Below, piece after piece: positions 1-17,925 of a stretch of 64,000 nucleotides of DNA (its first letter is position 1; each line of letters begins with the position of its first letter). Below the pieces are notes generated by a model. The model searched no databases. It was not told the origin of the DNA and saw only the letters and a list, made by a program, of their open reading frames with translations. The translations under genes were made by a program, and so were the position numbers. The DNA is taken from IMG/VR virus record IMGVR_UViG_3300032265_001591, positions 9,724 through 73,723 of that record; one strand, given 5' to 3'. The stretch is from a virus.

Positions 1-646
1 GCGTAAAAGAGCAAAAACCTTAGGTAAAAGAGCGGCAAACGCATATCTAAAAAGTTTAGAGAGTCAAGGAATAACTAAAGATGATATACATGAAGTTCAT
101 TTGACCAATAAAGGAATAAGCAACGCAATTGGAAGAGAAGTTTCACGTCGCAATAATCCACATGATATAATCATAAAAACTAAAGATGGTAAATTTCACG
201 GAGCTTCATTAAAAGCTAGTGAAGGCACAGTGAGTAATAATGGTCTAAAGACATTTGATGAACATTCAATATTTAATGGTAAACCTACCAATATAAAAGG
301 AGCGTGGGTAGCACAATCAAATGGAAATGCTGCGGCTGAACACCATGCAAATATGTTTAATTCAGCAAATGATAAAGAAAAAAAAGATCACTTGCATTAC
401 TTACTTAAAAGTCATCCTGATGTGCCATATCATTATGTAGTTGCTGATCAAGATAAATCTATATCCATTGAAAACCATCCTGTTATAAAAGCAATAAATA
501 AAGCAACAAAAATAACAGCTGAACGTAGAGGTGCAAATGTTCATTTCTATGATCAAGATGGAAAACACTTAGCTTACGTGGAACATCGTCGTCCAGGTAA
601 AGGAAAATCACCACAAGCAAATGCTAAATTTGGGAGTTTAAAATGA
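1..646 (+). CDS. 5'-truncated putative PD-(D/E)XK-type nuclease, His-rich
   Basis: Frame is open from position 2, so the listed TTG at 101 is not the true start. NPHDIII...HGASLK resembles a PD..(S)xK nuclease motif. Confidence 0.5.
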   Translation, partial: RKRAKTLGKRAANAYLKSLESQGITKDDIHEVHLTNKGISNAIGREVSRRNNPHDIIIKTKDGKFHGASLKASEGTVSNNGLKTFDEHSIFNGKPTNIKGAWVAQSNGNAAAEHHANMFNSANDKEKKDHLHYLLKSHPDVPYHYVVADQDKSISIENHPVIKAINKATKITAERRGANVHFYDQDGKHLAYVEHRRPGKGKSPQANAKFGSLK

Positions 647-1590
647 AATCATTTATTACATTCATCGTTGAATCAATAAGACAAGGATTGCCACATATCA
701 CAAAGATGACTCGTGATCAATTTGACAATTTAACTAAAGATGGTAAAGTTCATTTAAATAAGATTACCGAAAAGACTGATGGCATGACCCATATGATGGG
801 GTATGATGAACATGGGTTTTATACTCAAAGTTCTGGTTCAGGCAATGAGAAAATGAGAAGTCCTCAAGATTTTGTTGATAGAGCAACAAGAAGATCACAA
901 GAAACAGGCAAACCTCTTGATCTTACTGCAGCAAATTCATTTGGTCATATTCATAAGATTCTTCATGCTAACCAAGGCTTACAAGATCATTTAAGATCAC
1001 AGTTTGAAAAAACTGGACAAGAAGTTAAAGTTCGTGGTGAAGCTTTTTATAAACCACTTTCGACTCCATCTGAAACAACTCCAGGTGAAATTAAATTTGT
1101 TGGCACTTCATATGATCCTTCACATATGGGATCAGTTGGTAAATATGTTATTCATTCACAATTACCAGAAAATCATCATGTAGATCTTGAGCATTTCAAA
1201 TCACACTTATCTACACCTGAAATGAATTTTGATGATGATATCATTAAGCATAAGCCTGCGCATCTTGATGTATCTGATGAAGTTAAAGATTATCATGGAT
1301 TAAATCATGAACTTCTTGCTGCAAGAACATCTCCAAAAAATAAAGAAGCTAAAGAAGCAGAGAATGCTAAATTTGATGCCATCAAGCAAAGAGTATCTGA
1401 TAAAGTCGATGCTCATTTCAAATCAGCGGGGTTGACTCCTAAATGGGGAAGTGGTTCAGAAGGATTTGTAGTTCATCCTTCATCTGAAAATCCTGAAGCT
1501 CCTCGATTTAAAAAAACTTCAGATGATTTTAGAGCTTATAAAGCAAATCCTGAAAATGCTGCTAACTTTAAGAAAAGGCAAACGACATGA
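643..1590 (+). CDS. ATP-dependent ligase/capping-enzyme superfamily nucleotidyltransferase (RNA ligase-like) with capsid-targeting N-terminus
   Basis: Motif I TEKTDG, motif III RGEAF, motif IV SEGFVV, motif V RFKKTS. N-terminus MKSFITFIVE. Confidence 0.7.
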   Translation: MKSFITFIVESIRQGLPHITKMTRDQFDNLTKDGKVHLNKITEKTDGMTHMMGYDEHGFYTQSSGSGNEKMRSPQDFVDRATRRSQETGKPLDLTAANSFGHIHKILHANQGLQDHLRSQFEKTGQEVKVRGEAFYKPLSTPSETTPGEIKFVGTSYDPSHMGSVGKYVIHSQLPENHHVDLEHFKSHLSTPEMNFDDDIIKHKPAHLDVSDEVKDYHGLNHELLAARTSPKNKEAKEAENAKFDAIKQRVSDKVDAHFKSAGLTPKWGSGSEGFVVHPSSENPEAPRFKKTSDDFRAYKANPENAANFKKRQTT

Positions 1591-2453
1591 TTAGATTTGT
1601 ACAATTTATTTTAGAAGGTGGTAATATAAAGATCGGCGACGTATCAGCCGCGCCATTTTCTGTTACTGAAAAAAATAGAAGTGAGAGAGTTAAAGACGCT
1701 AAAGATGCTTTAAGTGAATTGCATGATTCATTCCATAAAGAACATGGTGAAGAATTATTTGGTAAAAATAAAAAGGGATTAGCAAGCGGATCTATATTTG
1801 CAGGATCAACGCGACAACTAATGGATCCAAAAATTAGTGATAGCGAATTTGCTAAACATAAATCAACTGTTGGTGACATGGATGTTCAGGTGATGAGAGA
1901 TCATGGTGATAAACTTACATCGCATTTAACACCCGGCAAACGATTTGGTAAATATACTGTAGTTGGAACTAAGAAACATGGTAATGAAATTTCAGCAGTG
2001 ATGAAACACGACAATGGTGAACACCATCAATTTGATTTTGAAAAAGTGCATTATGAAAATGGTGAGCCAACTCCAGCTGAACAATTTCTTCATAGTGCAA
2101 ATTGGGAAGATACAAAGGCAGGAATTAAAGGTGCTCATCATAAGATCCTTTTAAATGCTGCTGGTGGCACTACACATAAGTTTTCAATCTCACACGGTTT
2201 ACGTTCAAGAACTGATGAATCTGATCCGGGCGCACAACATCCAAATGATGTGTCAGCAAGACTGTTTGGCAATAAAGCAGATCATTCAAAAGTTACTTCA
2301 TTCTTAGGAGTGTCTGATTTAATTAAGAATCATATTCCTAAAGAACAACACCAAGCAATCTATGATAAATTTAAAGAAGGTGTTTCACGATTAAAAGTTG
2401 ATAATGAACCTGCGCTTGCACACTTAAGAAAAACATTAGGAGTTCATGACTAA
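1587..2453 (+). CDS. Pol-beta superfamily nucleotidyltransferase with capsid-targeting N-terminus
   Basis: FAGS...GDMDV plus a third Asp in QFDF. N-terminus MIRFVQFILE. Confidence 0.7.
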   Translation: MIRFVQFILEGGNIKIGDVSAAPFSVTEKNRSERVKDAKDALSELHDSFHKEHGEELFGKNKKGLASGSIFAGSTRQLMDPKISDSEFAKHKSTVGDMDVQVMRDHGDKLTSHLTPGKRFGKYTVVGTKKHGNEISAVMKHDNGEHHQFDFEKVHYENGEPTPAEQFLHSANWEDTKAGIKGAHHKILLNAAGGTTHKFSISHGLRSRTDESDPGAQHPNDVSARLFGNKADHSKVTSFLGVSDLIKNHIPKEQHQAIYDKFKEGVSRLKVDNEPALAHLRKTLGVHD

Positions 2454-3061
2454 TGAAGAGCTTAAGGGCATTTATCTACGAACAAGAAGTGCATCATGTG
2501 TCCGTTGTTCCTCTGGTTGGGTTTTCACCTTTATCTCACATGGGGCATGCACATGATTTAGGCGGAACTTTATCCAATTTGCCAGGAAGTAAACATGTTG
2601 GAATATCAGCAAAGTCTGATGTGTTTACTCCAGAAGAAAGAAAAAATGTTTTAAATAGACAATGGGGTTCTAATGTAAAAGCAGAAGTTAGCAATTCTGG
2701 TGGAGCAACAATCGCTAATGCTTTTAATTCAATGCCTAAGACTGGTAAAAAGGTATTACACATTGTCGTTGGTTCAGATCGTCTTGGGTTTGCTGAAGGA
2801 TTAAAGAACAGTCTTGAAGCAGGAAAAATAAAAGAAATGGGTGATAATAATTTTGATGAGATTCATATTCATACTCCTAAAGATGAAGATAGAAGTCATG
2901 GAATGAGTGGAACAAACATGAGACAAGCTGCAACTAATGGCGATATTGAAACGTTCCATAAACATTTAGGAACAATGTTCTCAAGACAAGAAGCTCAAGA
3001 CATGATGAAAAAAACAAAAGAAGCTATTGATTCAGGTAAACTAAAAGTTAAAAGGAAATAA
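2453..3061 (+). CDS. HIGH-superfamily cytidylyl/adenylyltransferase (NadD/CoaD-like fold) with capsid-targeting N-terminus
   Basis: GFSPLSHMGH, VVGSDR and MSGTNMR motifs. N-terminus MKSLRAFIYE. Confidence 0.8.
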   Translation: MKSLRAFIYEQEVHHVSVVPLVGFSPLSHMGHAHDLGGTLSNLPGSKHVGISAKSDVFTPEERKNVLNRQWGSNVKAEVSNSGGATIANAFNSMPKTGKKVLHIVVGSDRLGFAEGLKNSLEAGKIKEMGDNNFDEIHIHTPKDEDRSHGMSGTNMRQAATNGDIETFHKHLGTMFSRQEAQDMMKKTKEAIDSGKLKVKRK

Positions 3062-3065
3062 TATT

Positions 3066-3713
3066 ATGAGTTATGCTACATTAATAAATGTGCGAAATCA
3101 ATTTGTAGATGAATATAGTAATTGGCTTTGGGTTGCTCAAGATTCTGGTGCATGGATAGGGCCTTCTCAAGAGTGGGCTTCACACAAAGCAATAATACAA
3201 AAGTATGTTAAGAAATATGATTGTATAGTTCAAGCCGGTGGAAATCTTGGTCTATATCCAATGCTATATTCAAGATTATTTAAGACAGTATATACATTTG
3301 AACCAGATCCTTTAAATTTTCATTGCTTAGTGAATAACTGCCAATATGATAATATCGTCAAAATTCAAGCTGCATTATCTGATTCTCATGAAATGATGAA
3401 AGTGAATCGTAATGGATTTTCAAATGTTGGTGCATACACCGTAAGTAGAGATAAAACAGCAATTATTCCATCACTTAAACTTGATGATTTTGATTTTGAA
3501 ACTCTTGATGCAATTCACTTAGACATTGAAAACTTTGAAGAACATGCATTACGTGGCGCAATTGAAACAATCAATAAGCATAAACCAGTTCTTCTTTTAG
3601 AAAATGGACATCGTGTTGAAGTCATGACTGAGATACTAAAATTAGGTTATGAAGTTAGAGATAGATCCGGATCAGATACACTTTTTATGCCAATTAAAAA
3701 TATAAATAGATAA
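3066..3713 (+). CDS. FkbM-family SAM-dependent methyltransferase
   Basis: QAGGNLG, YTFEPDP, IHLDIENFE..ALRGA, KPVLLLE motifs. Confidence 0.85.
   Translation: MSYATLINVRNQFVDEYSNWLWVAQDSGAWIGPSQEWASHKAIIQKYVKKYDCIVQAGGNLGLYPMLYSRLFKTVYTFEPDPLNFHCLVNNCQYDNIVKIQAALSDSHEMMKVNRNGFSNVGAYTVSRDKTAIIPSLKLDDFDFETLDAIHLDIENFEEHALRGAIETINKHKPVLLLENGHRVEVMTEILKLGYEVRDRSGSDTLFMPIKNINR
3701..3708 (+). promoter_or_regulatory. T4-type late promoter TATAAATA
   Basis: Exact gp55-dependent consensus just upstream of the ORF at 3736. Confidence 0.75.
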
Positions 3714-3735: not shown

Positions 3736-4158
3736 ATGCTTAATTTTATAGATTTTCTCGAACAAAATCCTTTAGAAGAAGGAAATATGGCCAGAAAATG
3801 GATTAATAGACTTAAATCTATTATATCTGGTAACACACGTAGACGAAGAATTGGTAGAGAATTCGCTGCATTTGATCAACCTCCAGAAAAATCAGTTGGA
3901 TTAAAGCCAAGACAGCAAAAAACATTTGCTTCAAAGACAAATGCTAGTTTACTTACTCAAGAATTTGAACATAACTCACTAAATGAGGCTTATGATTCAT
4001 TTAATGTTGTAAAAGCAGCCGGTTATGGTACTTTTATGACTGCTAGAGACCTAGGAATTAAAATAAAAGCAGGGGTTGAACAACATCCAACAGTAGAAGA
4101 GGCTATCGAAGAGATCGAAGAGATAGAGGAGAAGAAAAATGATAAACGAATTGATTAA
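3736..4158 (+). CDS. Hypothetical protein, possible internal head protein
   Basis: N-terminus MLNFIDFLEQNPLEE resembles a capsid-targeting sequence; follows a late promoter. Confidence 0.6.
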   Translation: MLNFIDFLEQNPLEEGNMARKWINRLKSIISGNTRRRRIGREFAAFDQPPEKSVGLKPRQQKTFASKTNASLLTQEFEHNSLNEAYDSFNVVKAAGYGTFMTARDLGIKIKAGVEQHPTVEEAIEEIEEIEEKKNDKRID

Positions 4159-4795: not shown

Positions 4796-5037
4796 TGGAA
4801 GAACTTATAAAAGAGATTCTATCTCATAAGAATGAAGATGGTGTTATTGGCGAATTAGCTAATGAACTATATAACATAATTGAAGATCATAAAGCTGGTC
4901 AAATCACAGATGAAGATCTTAAAGAATTATTGACAGAAACTATTAATGCTTTTAAAGCACATGAAAATGCTAATAATGAAGTAATGATTAGATGGGCAGT
5001 TAAGATTGCACAACTTGCAGCAAAGGCAATGATATAA
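4795..5037 (+). CDS. Hypothetical protein
   Basis: TAATG overlap with the upstream stop gives a start at 4795 (MEELIKE). Confidence 0.65.
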   Translation: MEELIKEILSHKNEDGVIGELANELYNIIEDHKAGQITDEDLKELLTETINAFKAHENANNEVMIRWAVKIAQLAAKAMI

Positions 5038-5474
5038 TGAATCTCATAGATGCAGTAAAAGTAGTACTAGCAAATAATTTTGCACTTTATCTAAAGGCTC
5101 ACTATTTTCATTGGAATGTAGAAGGTCCAGATTTTGCACAATTTCATGAATTCTTTGAAAATCTTTATACTGATATCTATAGCTCAATAGATCATTTTGC
5201 AGAAGAAATTAGAGCGTTGGACGCATACGCTCCTGGATCTTTTGAACGTTACGTTGAACTTTCTCAGATCAAAGGTGAAGAAAGAATTTTAACCGCCCCA
5301 GAAATGTTACGTCAGTTGCAAATTGATAATCAGACAATGATTGCTTCTATGAATACTGCTTATAATTTAGCTAATGCAGCAAATGAAATCGGACTTTCAA
5401 ATTTTATTCAAGATAGAACTGACCAACATAAAAAACACGCTTGGATGATCAGATCATTCCTTAAGGGACAATAA
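5037..5474 (+). CDS. dps: Dps family ferritin-like DNA protection protein
   Basis: HYFHWNVEGPDFAQFHEFFE...D..AEEIRAL and KHAWMIRS signatures. Confidence 0.92.
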   Translation: MNLIDAVKVVLANNFALYLKAHYFHWNVEGPDFAQFHEFFENLYTDIYSSIDHFAEEIRALDAYAPGSFERYVELSQIKGEERILTAPEMLRQLQIDNQTMIASMNTAYNLANAANEIGLSNFIQDRTDQHKKHAWMIRSFLKGQ

Positions 5475-6115
5475 TGGATAGGTACAAGTCTTTAGAAAGT
5501 GTAATACGGGATATGCCAAAGACAGTTGCAATGTTAGACAGCGTAGAATGGCGTTATTCTCGTGTTTGTTCTACTATTAGAAAAATGTATGAACAAGCTA
5601 ATCAGATTGAAAAGCATGAAGGTGATCAATTAGCTGTTGGTACTTATATGACAAAAGAATTTGAAGAATCTCCAAAAGCACAACTTCTATTTTCAAGTTT
5701 ACCTAAGGATACCAATCCAGAGCATGCTGAAAAGTGTGCAATTCTTCTTGACAAACTATTTGCTATACAAAAAAATACTAAAGCTTCTGAGAGCGCAACA
5801 AAACAAGAAATAAGTACAGCCGAAGACTTAGTTAAACAGATTAAAATGTTTGCTGATAAAATGAATTTTGGTAATAAAATGAATTTTGTTGATGCCAATC
5901 TTAATGCTATTAAAAAATATGCTGGTGTAGTTCCAGAAATGCCAATTGCAACTACGGATAAAGAAGTTGAGCGTCTTAAGTCAAAGACGCAGCCAACTCC
6001 TCCATCTGAAAGAAACCCAGATCCAAAGAAAGATCTTGATTTAGACTCTAAGCAGTTCTTAATTCGTCGAGATCTTAAAGGTCAAAGAAAAATAAAAATT
6101 ATCGACGGAGATTAA
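5474..6115 (+). CDS. Hypothetical protein
   Basis: Translationally coupled ORF of 213 aa. Confidence 0.7.
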   Translation: MDRYKSLESVIRDMPKTVAMLDSVEWRYSRVCSTIRKMYEQANQIEKHEGDQLAVGTYMTKEFEESPKAQLLFSSLPKDTNPEHAEKCAILLDKLFAIQKNTKASESATKQEISTAEDLVKQIKMFADKMNFGNKMNFVDANLNAIKKYAGVVPEMPIATTDKEVERLKSKTQPTPPSERNPDPKKDLDLDSKQFLIRRDLKGQRKIKIIDGD

Positions 6116-6127
6116 CGGAGAACTAAT

Positions 6128-7312
6128 ATGTCTAACCTAAAAAATACTTATGGCTTTTCACAGAGTCTTTTAGATGCAATTCTAAGCGTTCAAGAAAATG
6201 CTTTAAAAGGAAAGCAATCAAACATTGACGTAGCAGAACCCAAGGGTAAGATTACGGCTGCCGATTTTGCAAAGCTTCGTGCTATGAAAAAAGAAGAAGT
6301 CGAACAGATTGATGAAATTTCAAAAGAAACAAAACAACGGTATTTAGGCACAGCCGTTGGTGATCTTGCCACGCGTGCGTATAAGCATGGATTTAAAACT
6401 GCAGGAGCCTACAAGCGAACCGATAGCGAAATCGCTGCCGCTGAACGTAATATAAAAAATCGTCAAGCGGGTATTCACCGTGCAACTAAAGAAGAAGTCG
6501 ATCTTGATGAAGGTGGAATGCCTAGTTCAGTTATTCGGTCAAAACAAAAATATGCTGCCATGACCAATCAAGAATTTGCTGATCTACATGGACATAAAAC
6601 TGAAGAGCAATTAAGACAAATGGCTTGGTCACATGGTTATGGTAAAATGAGTCCACATTATTGGAATCGAGTTCAAAAAGCTAAAGCAACTCAAATGAAA
6701 GAAGAAGTTGAACAGCTTGAAGAAGCACAAAATTTAATTCCACTTATTTCACAGCTTAAAGCACTACTAAGTTGGCTTGTAAGTTCTGGTGCAATTCGTA
6801 AGTTTGCAAAAGAAGAAGCTGATGTTGTTGGTATGCTTGAACTACTAGAGTATCGTACACCTGGTTCTAAAAATGGTCAGCGTAAAGAAAGAAAATCAAC
6901 TGGCGCAGCGCGTGGTCGTCCTAAGAACTCAGATAGCATGCAATCAAAATCAAATGAAAATGAAGAATTAGACAGTGCTCCTGCATATGATTCAGCTAGT
7001 CGTGATACGAAAGAAGGATTTAGACACGTTTTAACCGATATACAAAATGCAGCAGACAGTTCTACTGGTGGTACAGTTGTACAAGATAAACAAAAACAAA
7101 GACATTTGCCACAAAAAACTGCACAGCAATTACTAAATATTTTTAGAACAGCAAAACCAGCAGTTAATGCTGAACTATCTGGGCATATTTTTGCAAACAG
7201 AGAAATTCCATTGAGATCCCCACATCATATAGCTGCCTATAAAGCAATGAAAGGTGCTGGCGAAATTACTTCACTTCCCAATGGACGCGGTAGACCAGCA
7301 AACGAGCAATAA
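6128..7312 (+). CDS. Putative internal head (prohead core-like) protein with repeated KEEV(E/D)..(I/L)(D/E)E linkers and two AT-hook-like RGRP motifs
   Basis: RBS GGAG; repeats KEEVEQIDE, KEEVDLDE, KEEVEQLEE; ARGRPK and GRGRPA. Confidence 0.6.
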   Translation: MSNLKNTYGFSQSLLDAILSVQENALKGKQSNIDVAEPKGKITAADFAKLRAMKKEEVEQIDEISKETKQRYLGTAVGDLATRAYKHGFKTAGAYKRTDSEIAAAERNIKNRQAGIHRATKEEVDLDEGGMPSSVIRSKQKYAAMTNQEFADLHGHKTEEQLRQMAWSHGYGKMSPHYWNRVQKAKATQMKEEVEQLEEAQNLIPLISQLKALLSWLVSSGAIRKFAKEEADVVGMLELLEYRTPGSKNGQRKERKSTGAARGRPKNSDSMQSKSNENEELDSAPAYDSASRDTKEGFRHVLTDIQNAADSSTGGTVVQDKQKQRHLPQKTAQQLLNIFRTAKPAVNAELSGHIFANREIPLRSPHHIAAYKAMKGAGEITSLPNGRGRPANEQ

Positions 7313-8653: not shown

Positions 8654-9043
8654 ATGAAATGTGAAACCTTGGATAATAGTAATTTCTTATTATATGCTGC
8701 TAAACATTATGATAATCCACAATGTTTTGACACCAAAGAATTTTATGATGATCTCAAAAAGTTTAAGTATCTTAAAAGACTTTTTAATCGCTATAAAGAA
8801 ACTGGTGAATTGAAAGAAAGATTGATAATTAATCATCTACAGATTCTTTATAATCTGTTTGGTATTGATGCAACTACTAGAATGTTATTCTTGGCGCTTA
8901 AGAAACATCGAGAATGCCTTAAACCTTTTTTAATATTATTCAATACAATGCCGGATGTGGTTAAATGTATTGAGGGTAGTGATATTTACGAAAGCGATAT
9001 AGCAATGGATCAAACCATTGTAGAAATACTAAGGAAGATCTAA
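8654..9043 (+). CDS. Conserved T4-like phage hypothetical protein
   Basis: NFLLYAAKHYDNPQC...EF..DLK.FKYLKRL...ERLIINH family motif. Confidence 0.8.
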   Translation: MKCETLDNSNFLLYAAKHYDNPQCFDTKEFYDDLKKFKYLKRLFNRYKETGELKERLIINHLQILYNLFGIDATTRMLFLALKKHRECLKPFLILFNTMPDVVKCIEGSDIYESDIAMDQTIVEILRKI

Positions 9044-9387
9044 TGAAAACACTATCTCAATTTATTTTAGAAACTGTTTCTAAGATTGATCATGATCTCA
9101 GTGAAGAGTATATTGCGGAACGAGGTGAAGATTCTAAAGGATATAGACGTCCTACAGAAAAGGGTGCAGGGCTAACTCGCAAAGGTGTTATGTTTTATCG
9201 TCGTCAAAATCCCGGTTCAACCCTACAAACTGCAGTAACGGGTAAAGTCAAGCCCGGATCTAAAGCAGCAAAGCGTAGGAAATCTTTCTGTGCACGCATG
9301 TCGGGTATGCCTGGTCCTATGAAAGATGAAAAGGGCAGACCAACACGAAAAGCCATGTCTCTTAGAAGATGGAGATGCAGAACATGA
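9043..9387 (+). CDS. Basic hypothetical protein with capsid-targeting N-terminus (DUF6321-like)
   Basis: MKTLSQFILE; RRKSFCARMSG...PTRKAMSLRRWRC. Confidence 0.7.
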   Translation: MKTLSQFILETVSKIDHDLSEEYIAERGEDSKGYRRPTEKGAGLTRKGVMFYRRQNPGSTLQTAVTGKVKPGSKAAKRRKSFCARMSGMPGPMKDEKGRPTRKAMSLRRWRCRT

Positions 9388-17289: not shown

Positions 17290-17925
17290 ATGCACTACAC
17301 AATTTATAAAGTTACAAACAAGATAGATGGCAAGATCTATATTGGATCTCATAAGACCAAAAATCTTGATGACGGCTACATGGGTTCAGGTAAGTATCTT
17401 AAACGAGCAATAGAGAAATACGGTATTGAAAATTTTGAAAAAGAAATACTGTTCGTTTACGACAACCCTGAAGCTATGTATCAAAAAGAAGGCGAAATTG
17501 TTAACGAAGATTTTCTCTCTACAGAAAACACTTACAACTTGAAAGTTGGTGGATTTGGTGGATGGGATTACATAAATCAGAATGACTTAAGTGGCGGAGG
17601 TTGGCGAAAGTCATCATCAGAAAAAAAATCTAAATCTGGTAGATTTGGAGGAATTACAGCATTCAATAAAAAAGTTGGAATCTTTAGTGAAGAGTCAAAA
17701 AATAAATCAAAAAAGACGCTGTTGGAAAAATATCCTAACGGCACCTTTTATGGAAAAACTCATTCCGAAGAAGCCAAAAAGATTATATCGCAACGAAATT
17801 CTATGATGCAATCCGGTGAAAAAAATTCACAATATGGCACGATGTGGATCACTAATGGCATTAAAAATGCAAAAATTAAAAGAAATGACGCTATTCCGGA
17901 TGGGTGGCAAAAAGGAAGAAAATGA
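17290..17925 (+). mobile_element. Free-standing Seg-like GIY-YIG homing endonuclease inside the tRNA cluster
   Basis: YTIYKVTNKIDGKIYIG, YMGSG, YNLKVGG; NUMOD3-like FYGKTHSEEAKKIIS and GEKNSQYGTMWITNG. Confidence 0.9.

Follow-up and report, generated by a model that had tools for sequence, protein, structure and literature searches.

At the start of a 64,000-nucleotide stretch of viral DNA (bases 9724-73723 of the 73.7-kb IMG/VR contig IMGVR_UViG_3300032265_001591; hereafter the window) lies a run of closely packed open reading frames (ORFs), the first four of which encode a possible nuclease and three nucleotidyltransferase-like proteins that all begin with a similar leader of about ten residues. 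We describe these genes, their leader and their relatives, and argue that the phage probably injects, along with its genome, pre-made enzymes that would fill in and seal breaks in DNA or RNA. The contig, about 44% complete according to CheckV, belongs to a T4-like phage: the window encodes homologues of the gp2 DNA end protector, the gp4 head closure protein and the gp5 hub-lysozyme, as well as of gp25, the gp6 baseplate wedge, a gp48-like tube cap, a primase and NrdAB. No DNA-level similarity to any cultured phage was found, and neither DNA nor tblastn searches recovered relatives of ORF1 or ORF2 in cultured phages.

Gene layout and leader census

An earlier note on this DNA, made by a model from the letters alone, had described five packed ORFs of which the first four overlap, and its coordinates and junctions hold: ORF1 to ORF5 all lie on the + strand (Table 1), with ATGA overlaps at ORF1/2 and ORF2/3, TAATG at ORF3/4 and a gap of 4 nt between ORF4 and ORF5. 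The N-termini that it quoted for the three nucleotidyltransferases (MKSFITFIVE, MIRFVQFILE and MKSLRAFIYE) are likewise correct, but the leader-bearing set is larger than these three, taking in ORF1 and at least three further putative cargo proteins. The window opens inside ORF1; counted in full, this gene starts 481 nt farther upstream, at contig position 9242, encodes 375 aa and has a leader of its own, MLSFVQYILE, so that four adjacent genes rather than three carry one.

When the ORF starts of the whole contig were scanned for the strict pattern M-x-x-[FLIVMY]-x-x-[FYW]-[ILV]-x-E, 5 of the 174 matched, namely ORF1-4 and a 114-aa gene at 9043 that encodes a DUF6321 protein, against 0.06 expected by chance from amino-acid composition (Poisson P ~7e-9). 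Two further genes, ORF6 at 3736 and the gene for a DUF5824 protein at 9384, have looser leaders of the same design, and all seven leader genes lie inside about 10 kb. Every strict leader has F or L at position 4 and F or Y at position 7, and I-x-E occupies positions 8-10 in ORF1-4 and the DUF6321 protein. ORF6 has no family match; the DUF5824 protein also matches the C-terminus of phrog_3041, a 'cytidyltransferase'.

The fifth gene, a methyltransferase of the FkbM family, had been counted in one cassette with the nuclease and the nucleotidyltransferases. ORF1-4 do stand together in this way. ORF5 matches PF05050 (7.8e-9, 36.3 bits against a cut-off of 22.7) and phrog_8156 (6e-40) but was rejected as a member, since it has no leader, is never fused and is without conserved synteny, with no homologue in any of 11 related loci.

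Table 1. Positions of the leader genes and associated features in the window.
Feature	Position	Strand	Remarks
ORF1, 3' part (full gene 375 aa)	1..646	+	Leader MLSFVQYILE; possible restriction-endonuclease-like nuclease
ORF2, RNA-ligase-like covalent nucleotidyltransferase, 315 aa	643..1590	+	Leader MKSFITFIVE; mature start SIRQGLPH
ORF2 leader, 10 codons, predicted capsid-targeting and cleavage peptide	643..672	+	Near-universal among homologues listed; disordered in model
ORF3, minimal polymerase-X-like nucleotidyltransferase of the Pol-beta superfamily, 288 aa	1587..2453	+	Leader MIRFVQFILE; mature start GGN
ORF4, HIGH-type (cytidylyltransferase-like) nucleotidyltransferase, 202 aa	2453..3061	+	Own leader MKSLRAFIYE
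ORF5, FkbM-family methyltransferase, outside the leader set	3066..3713	+	PF05050, phrog_8156
Exact T4-type late promoter box TATAAATA	3701..3708	+	35 nt upstream of ORF6
ORF6, 140-aa charged protein, candidate internal protein	3736..4158	+	15-aa leader-like start MLNFIDFLEQNPLEE
DUF6321 protein, 114 aa	9043..9387	+	Leader MKTLSQFILE; PF19846 1e-20
DUF5824 protein, 232 aa	9384..10082	+	Leader MISFKTFLQSIEE; PF19141 3e-20; start overlaps preceding stop as ATGA

Folds and motifs of the leader-bearing enzymes

All three nucleotidyltransferase folds proposed in the earlier note found backing in structure or profile comparison: ORF2 matched RNA ligases at Z scores of about 10 and ORF3 matched family-X polymerases at about 9, and what had been called a 'pol-beta NTase' is more precisely polymerase-X-like in architecture. 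The catalytic motifs of ORF1-4 are invariant in the family alignments or part of the family consensus. Single-sequence and profile searches of PDB sequences with ORF1-4 gave no meaningful match.

When the AlphaFold2 model of ORF2 (predicted local distance difference test score, pLDDT, 92.3) was compared exhaustively with 48,161 representative chains, covalent nucleotidyltransferases made up the top 36, with RNA ligases at ranks 1-7. Among its structure matches (Foldseek, VIA), NgrRnl from Naegleria scored Z 9.7-10.1 over 186-187 aligned aa (root-mean-square deviation 3.5-3.6), and trypanosome REL1 (9.2), T4 Rnl2 (8.8), Trl1 (8.3) and T4 Rnl1 (8.2-8.7) were also recovered, against at most 7.3 for DNA ligases and about 5-5.7 for capping enzymes. 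Motifs I and III-V are invariant in 88 sequences (K44, D46, G47, E133, E273, G274 and K290). ORF2 itself matches no Pfam model, the RNA-ligase models PF09414 and PF09511 included; two distant relatives match these, one each (3.9e-7 and 8.5e-5, respectively). As modelled, ORF2 resembles an ATP-dependent RNA ligase, which points toward RNA as its substrate, or toward nicks with a ribonucleotide 3' end.

For ORF3 (model pLDDT 94.1), both the Foldseek and the exhaustive lists are headed by Pol beta, Pol mu, Pol lambda, Thermus (Tth) PolX, TdT and the PolX of African swine fever virus (ASFV), at Z 8.0-9.0 over 164-185 residues aligned within model residues 2-240, and viral PolX models are among the matches in BFVD. 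Pol beta (Z 9.0, 179 aa) aligns through its residues 98-334 with model residues 2-239, ASFV PolX aligns over 168/176 aa and TdT, a template-independent terminal transferase, reaches Z 8.0; terminal uridylyltransferases, poly(A) polymerases and cGAS-like enzymes share only a core of 95-125 residues (Z 5-7.9). The GS...DxD...D motif is invariant (G73, S74, D97, D99 and D150). Nothing but the leader stands N-terminal of the polymerase core, so that there is no 8-kDa dRP-lyase domain, which ASFV PolX likewise lacks, and none of 74 family members (ORF3 and 73 relatives) matches a Pfam model; we therefore call ORF3 PolX-like in architecture and not a member of that family. Membership of RlaP was also considered and found no support, as neither ORF3 (E values up to 0.1) nor 74 relatives (up to 0.05) matched PF10127. 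Once mature, the PolX-like enzyme would begin with Gly-Gly-Asn in either case, after leader cleavage and, in leaderless homologues that start MGGN, after removal of the Met; a free alpha-amino end conserved in this way may matter for function.

ORF4 carries SHMGH (HxGH) and MSGTxMR motifs, both also present in the family consensus, and it matches PHROG cytidyltransferase families (4e-15 and 1.4e-10) and no Pfam model. In its nearest Atlas clusters, 41-76% of the members have PF01467, and frequent fusion partners of its viral Atlas neighbours are P-loop kinases, NTP_transf_2 and DUF5824. A second cytidylyltransferase-like gene lies 3 kb upstream of the cassette at contig 5562-6224; it is leaderless, contains FDLFHAGH and is of the glycerol-3-phosphate cytidylyltransferase type.

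The PD..SxK reading of ORF1 fares less evenly. E119, D216 (in PHD), S230 and K232 (in S-L-K) are invariant in the family alignment (A4), but the Atlas leads are weak, all below 0.9 (RE_HaeIII 0.89, MspI 0.87), and neither Pfam nor PDB profile searches gave a match; 13 ORF1 relatives searched against Pfam gave none either. To judge from these residues, ORF1 is a possible restriction-endonuclease-like nuclease.

The leader as a capsid-targeting peptide

The earlier note had likened the leaders to the capsid-targeting leader of T4, MKTYQEFIAE, and both the census above and the match at positions 4, 7, 8 and 10 bear this likeness out. In T4, the first ten residues of IPIII suffice to load a protein into the prohead core (PMC9026906, PMC3012670); residues 4 and 7 are the main determinants of targeting, those of processing are residues 8 and 10, and the protease gp21 cleaves after L/I-X-Glu (PMC9026906). 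Among T-even internal proteins, the leader is the sole common feature (PMC9026906, PMC3012670). The positions conserved here are exactly those four, that is, the mapped IPIII determinants together with the gp21 rule, which we count as support for reading the leader as a capsid-targeting sequence.

Several lines of observation, each independent of the others, mark the leader as a separable module. It is found on nearly all of the 120 ORF2 homologues listed and on all 120 ORF3 homologues listed; the leaders vary in sequence and length, some being tandem, and the mature starts, SIRQGLPH for ORF2 and GGN for ORF3, are almost invariant. The ORF3 homologues of Vibrio phage Va1 and Xanthomonas phage X1 have no leader and both start MGGN, and that of Campylobacter phage CP220 has a leader ending in FILE directly before GGN. 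In the AlphaFold models of ORF2 and ORF3, residues 1-10 have a pLDDT below 50, against 92-94 overall.

The surroundings of the genes are also in keeping with T4-type head cargo. A gp21-type protease (PF03420) is encoded on two related cassette-bearing contigs (8e-39 and 2.5e-28), and on one related contig a 91-aa leader-bearing ORF lies directly upstream of the PF03420 protease. In T4, small core proteins are encoded at this very place. An exact late promoter box, TATAAATA, of which the whole contig has only seven copies on its + strand, stands in four relatives (L010, L011, L013 and L016) at 34-66 nt ahead of the ORF2 homologue. Cysteine makes up 0-0.02% of residues in the leader-protein families, against 0.63% in other genes, and ORF1-4 have none in 1180 residues; such near-absence fits proteins that persist outside cells. 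Taken together, these results support reading the leaders as capsid-targeting and cleavage peptides of the T4 type. The composition of the proteins is unusual in a second respect: histidine accounts for 5.9-7.7% of ORF1-4, against 1.3% in other large genes of the window, and for 7-9% across the families.

Virion evidence comes from a cyanophage. Mass spectrometry detected the cytidylyltransferase ORF154 in virions of cyanophage S-CREM2, whose authors, in the excerpts of their report considered here, describe cytidylyltransferases as frequent in cyanophage virion proteomes and caution that abundant non-structural proteins may co-purify with virions (PMC10665884). These excerpts link the virion cytidylyltransferase to no targeting leader (PMC10665884). 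The S-CREM2 genome has a single PF01467 gene, which starts MKNFSSFLTE, and its Syn19 homologue starts MKKFSAFLNE. Direct homology of the S-CREM2 protein to ORF4 found no support, as the ORF3-4 profile missed it and only the Pfam family and the leader are shared.

Fusions and polyproteins in relatives

Relatives of these genes form families of 194-250 sequence clusters on contigs of up to about 200 kb, almost none of which match a Pfam model. Among them are multiple fusions and polyproteins of up to 1214 aa. ORF3 and ORF4 form one protein of about 490 aa in most of the homologues listed, and the split form of this phage is in the minority; the linker of the fusion has a conserved V/I-x-E at which ORF3 of this phage ends, and ORF4 begins with a fresh leader. 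In one relative (L008), a verified open frame of 981 aa comprises ORF2-ORF3-ORF4 and an extra domain, with leader-like junctions. The longest chain, P0256 (1214 aa), reads ORF2-ORF3-ORF4-DUF5824-DUF6321 and thus unites five of the leader proteins of this phage. P0252 has the order ORF2-ORF4-ORF3, and shorter fusions join ORF1-ORF2 (P0278), ORF2-ORF4 (P0255) and ORF2-ORF3 (P0257). All junctions ahead of the PolX-like domain end in (I/L/V)-x-E directly before GGN, and several retain the full F-x-x-F-I/L-x-E.

A polyprotein built of independent cargo modules and processed by a protease would be expected to look like this, with its domain order shuffled and its cleavage-type junctions kept. In many relatives the genes occur together or as fusions; this supports a functional link between the enzymes and disposes of one refutation named in the earlier note, a lack of co-occurrence in other genomes. 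The split of a fusion with gain of a leader, and the shuffling of domains with retention of junctions, also amount to natural experiments on the T4 targeting signal.

The extra domain that ends the 981-aa polyprotein (179 aa, L008:8407-8946) follows a leader-like junction, FQDFILTE; it matches no Pfam or PHROG family and has no homologue in the window. In the cultured Xanthomonas phage X1 (L004:4022-7371), a PolX-like gene, a 335-aa protein of no known kind, a KLDG ligase-like gene (profile E 7.6e-5) and a cytidylyltransferase follow one another in a row, all leaderless. In Vibrio phage Va1 (L005:3998-7926), likewise cultured, the leaderless PolX-like gene is followed 1.3 kb downstream by a 491-aa protein that, by motif reading, combines a KTDG ligase-like half with a HIGH-like half and was not found by the ORF2 profile.

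Are the leader proteins packaged?

Our preferred explanation, to which we assign a probability of roughly 0.6, is that ORF1-4 and at least three nearby genes encode head-packaged, protease-processed and injected cargo for fill-and-seal repair. Each protein would be made late with an N-terminal capsid-targeting sequence of about ten residues that binds the prohead core, and a gp21-type prohead protease would cut after the (I/L/V)-x-Glu that ends the leader and, in the polyprotein relatives, at each domain junction as well. Once mature, the enzymes would remain in the head with the packaged DNA and pass into the cell together with the genome. For this phage we infer packaging, cleavage and injection, together with the enzyme activities and their substrate, from the leaders, folds, motifs, fusions and late promoters described above and from the protease of its relatives.

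Several points weigh against this explanation. Packaging and N-terminal trimming in this phage are inferred, and the virion evidence comes from S-CREM2 only. No prohead protease was found on the phage's own, roughly 44% complete contig, and upstream of its own ORF1 there is only AATAAATA, with one mismatch to the exact late promoter box, at -38. The conserved Glu before GGN could partly reflect the enzyme instead of a cleavage site. The structural matches of ORF2 and ORF3 are moderate (Z 8.5-10), and ORF1, ORF2 and ORF3 escape detection by Pfam or PDB sequence profiles; for ORF3, the lead of Pol beta over TUT7 (7.9) is less than 1.5 in Z, and the PolX lead lies mainly in aligned length and not in Z. 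Finally, the role of ORF4 in a repair scheme is unexplained, and the P-loop kinase fusions of its viral relatives are also typical of cofactor synthesis.

If the leader were not a head-targeting signal, ORF1-4 would be ordinary cytoplasmic enzymes, for example for RNA repair after infection in the style of T4 Pnk/Rnl, and their shared N-terminus might be a feature such as a docking helix for a common partner or an element of translation initiation. The restriction of the virion evidence to S-CREM2 and a contig that yielded no protease would suit this alternative, as would the leaderless homologues of Xanthomonas X1 and Vibrio Va1, which indicate that the enzymes can work without a leader, and the warning about co-purifying non-structural proteins in the S-CREM2 report excerpts. 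We nevertheless consider it unlikely. A docking or initiation element would have to coincide with the mapped T4 determinants at all four positions and to recur on unrelated folds and at polyprotein junctions, always ending in (I/L/V)-x-E; the new leader of ORF4 sits exactly at the fusion split; and, among relatives, late promoters precede the cassette, a gp21 protease is encoded and the families avoid cysteine.

What the cargo might do

Under the packaged-repair explanation, the core cargo would be ORF3 as a Pol-X-like nucleotide adder and ORF2 as an RNA-ligase-like sealer, with the HIGH-type nucleotidyltransferase ORF4, the possible nuclease ORF1 and the DUF5824 and DUF6321 proteins as accessories, and breaks in nucleic acid would be filled and sealed before phage gene expression. 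One possible substrate would be nicks and gaps in the phage's own environmentally damaged DNA; another would be host tRNAs cut by defence nucleases. The architecture of ORF3, the possible nuclease ORF1 and a place beside the packaged genome point to DNA, and the ligase clade of ORF2 to RNA, as discussed above; we give RNA repair and repair of the phage's own DNA roughly equal odds. Packaging would be logical either way: a phage with a damaged genome, or in a host whose translation is shut down, cannot express its own repair genes, whereas enzymes carried ready-made in the head would still work.

A packaged cargo need not be a repair kit. The earlier note had suggested, among other roles, counter-defence through NAD or nucleotide signals and nucleotidylation of host targets. 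In such a scheme, ORF4 would be an NMNAT-like maker of NAD, and the other enzymes would make or destroy signals or nucleotidylate host proteins. NMNAT does belong to the same HIGH superfamily as ORF4, the fusion to P-loop kinases seen among the viral structural neighbours of ORF4 is also that of NadR-type NAD salvage, excerpts of the cyanophage literature treat the virion cytidylyltransferase as an NMNAT homologue, and the Pol-beta fold of ORF3 includes cGAS-like and protein-AMPylating members (Z 5-7.6 against ORF3). We found no specific support for such roles, however, and think them improbable: the nearest folds of ORF2 are all polynucleotide ligases, only template-dependent family-X polymerases align with ORF3 along its entire length, and a ligase with a Pol-beta nucleotidyltransferase is an established nucleic-acid repair arrangement. 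The NAD-salvage version is weakened further in that no Nampt, Nudix or other salvage partner was seen in the cassette or its fusions. Still less probable, we think, is that the enzymes act on the phage genome in the head or at its ends, adding or sealing terminal nucleotides or modifying the ends against host exonucleases or restriction, as the phage already has a gp2-type DNA end protector, a filled head has no supply of ATP or NTPs and no terminal-protein-like or DNA-modification genes are linked in fusions, even though family X includes the template-independent terminal transferase (Z 8.0), the proteins would lie beside packaged DNA and ORF1 may be a DNA nuclease.

More tentatively, and with somewhat less than even confidence, the packaged-repair explanation can be widened to T4-like phages that abound in aquatic habitats: their heads would carry a complete machine for filling and sealing, made up of a PolX-like and an RNA-ligase-like enzyme with accessory nucleotidyltransferase and nuclease domains and loaded either as separate leader-tagged proteins or as a single polyprotein that the prohead protease cuts. 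If so, it would be the first repair system for nucleic acids that a phage delivers in its virion, and with it the phage could mend, before its own genes are translated, either its genome after damage by sunlight or oxidation or host tRNAs that defence nucleases have cut.

Comparison with known systems

Both the loading system and each of the enzyme folds are known; our literature searches found no ligase, PolX-like or HIGH enzyme tagged with a capsid-targeting sequence, nor the polyprotein forms of such enzymes. The T4 internal proteins IPI, IPII, IPIII and Alt share with ORF1-4 a leader of about ten residues, hydrophobic at positions 4 and 7 and with I/L-x-Glu at 8-10, as the only feature common to otherwise unrelated proteins, and in both cases the phage is T4-like, with a gp21-type protease (here in relatives) and late promoters ahead of the genes (here in relatives and before ORF6). 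They differ in that the cargo here would consist of 23-42-kDa nucleic-acid enzymes rather than small basic inhibitors or an ADP-ribosyltransferase, that relatives string it into polyproteins with leader-like junctions and that packaging is here a prediction. Known T4 head cargo comprises small inhibitors and one ADP-ribosyltransferase; a multi-enzyme nucleic-acid repair set would, if delivered as proposed, form a new class of such cargo.

The earlier note knew of no characterised pathway that combines these three folds, a statement that needs correction, as two precedents exist. RNA ligases of phages and bacteria are accompanied by the Pol-beta nucleotidyltransferase RlaP (PF10127), which restores 1-2 nucleotides on damaged RNA 3' ends before ligation (PMC12776372, PMC7824862). 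There, too, genetic coupling links an RNA-ligase-clade enzyme to one of the Pol-beta superfamily that could restore lost nucleotides; ORF3, in contrast, is closest to family-X DNA polymerases, the known systems (RlaP-linked ligases and T4 Pnk/Rnl) are made after infection and this phage yielded no kinase or phosphatase domain for end healing. The second precedent is ASFV, whose particle carries a base-excision-repair set of AP endonuclease, minimal Pol X and ligase with which viral DNA can be mended before it is replicated (PMC12172490). Its combination of minimal Pol X, ligase and nuclease is that proposed here, and its Pol X aligns with ORF3, but it is a eukaryotic virus without homology in packaging mechanism, its ligase is a DNA ligase whereas ORF2 is RNA-ligase-like, and ORF1 is no homologue of an AP endonuclease.

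The polyproteins of the relatives recall the polyvalent proteins of Iyer et al. (2017), which, in the excerpts of that survey considered here, likewise place many unrelated enzymatic domains in shuffled order on one chain with predicted delivery alongside DNA (PMC5512222). Polyvalent proteins are, however, linked to MuF or portal proteins and carry their own peptidase domains, whereas release here would need the prohead protease and T4-type leaders. According to the same excerpts, no RNA ligase accompanies the 2H phosphoesterase domains of such proteins (PMC5512222). S-CREM2 ORF154, finally, is a HIGH-type enzyme that excerpts of the proteome report place in purified virions (PMC10665884), and the S-CREM2 and Syn19 genes start with the same leader pattern, but the protein is too distant for the ORF3-4 profile. 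Targeting by such a leader could explain the puzzling published detections of cytidylyltransferases in cyanophage virions.

Other genes near the cassette

A Dps/ferritin-like gene (PF00210, 2e-23) lies at 5037-5474 of the window. In one relative (L006:9483-11735), a Dps/ferritin-like domain forms the C-terminal part of a 750-aa lysine-rich protein with repeated EEVEQIDE, and this protein may be head cargo, since the repeats fit I-x-E cleavage sites. The window itself encodes, at 6128-7312, a 394-aa charged protein with EEVEQ(I/L)(D/E)E repeats like those of this Dps fusion and no family match; to judge by the repeats, it may belong to the prohead core or to the internal proteins and contain several protease sites. 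Farther downstream, at 17290-17925, a homing-endonuclease-like gene (phrog_314, 1e-46) sits amid genes of nucleotide metabolism. Upstream of the window, contig bases 1-5000 are GC-rich and hold many small ORFs whose products start almost identically, with M(N/E)KG(I/M)(N/D)M, which indicates a repeated cassette of promoter and ribosome-binding site with a composition far from that of the AT-rich core.

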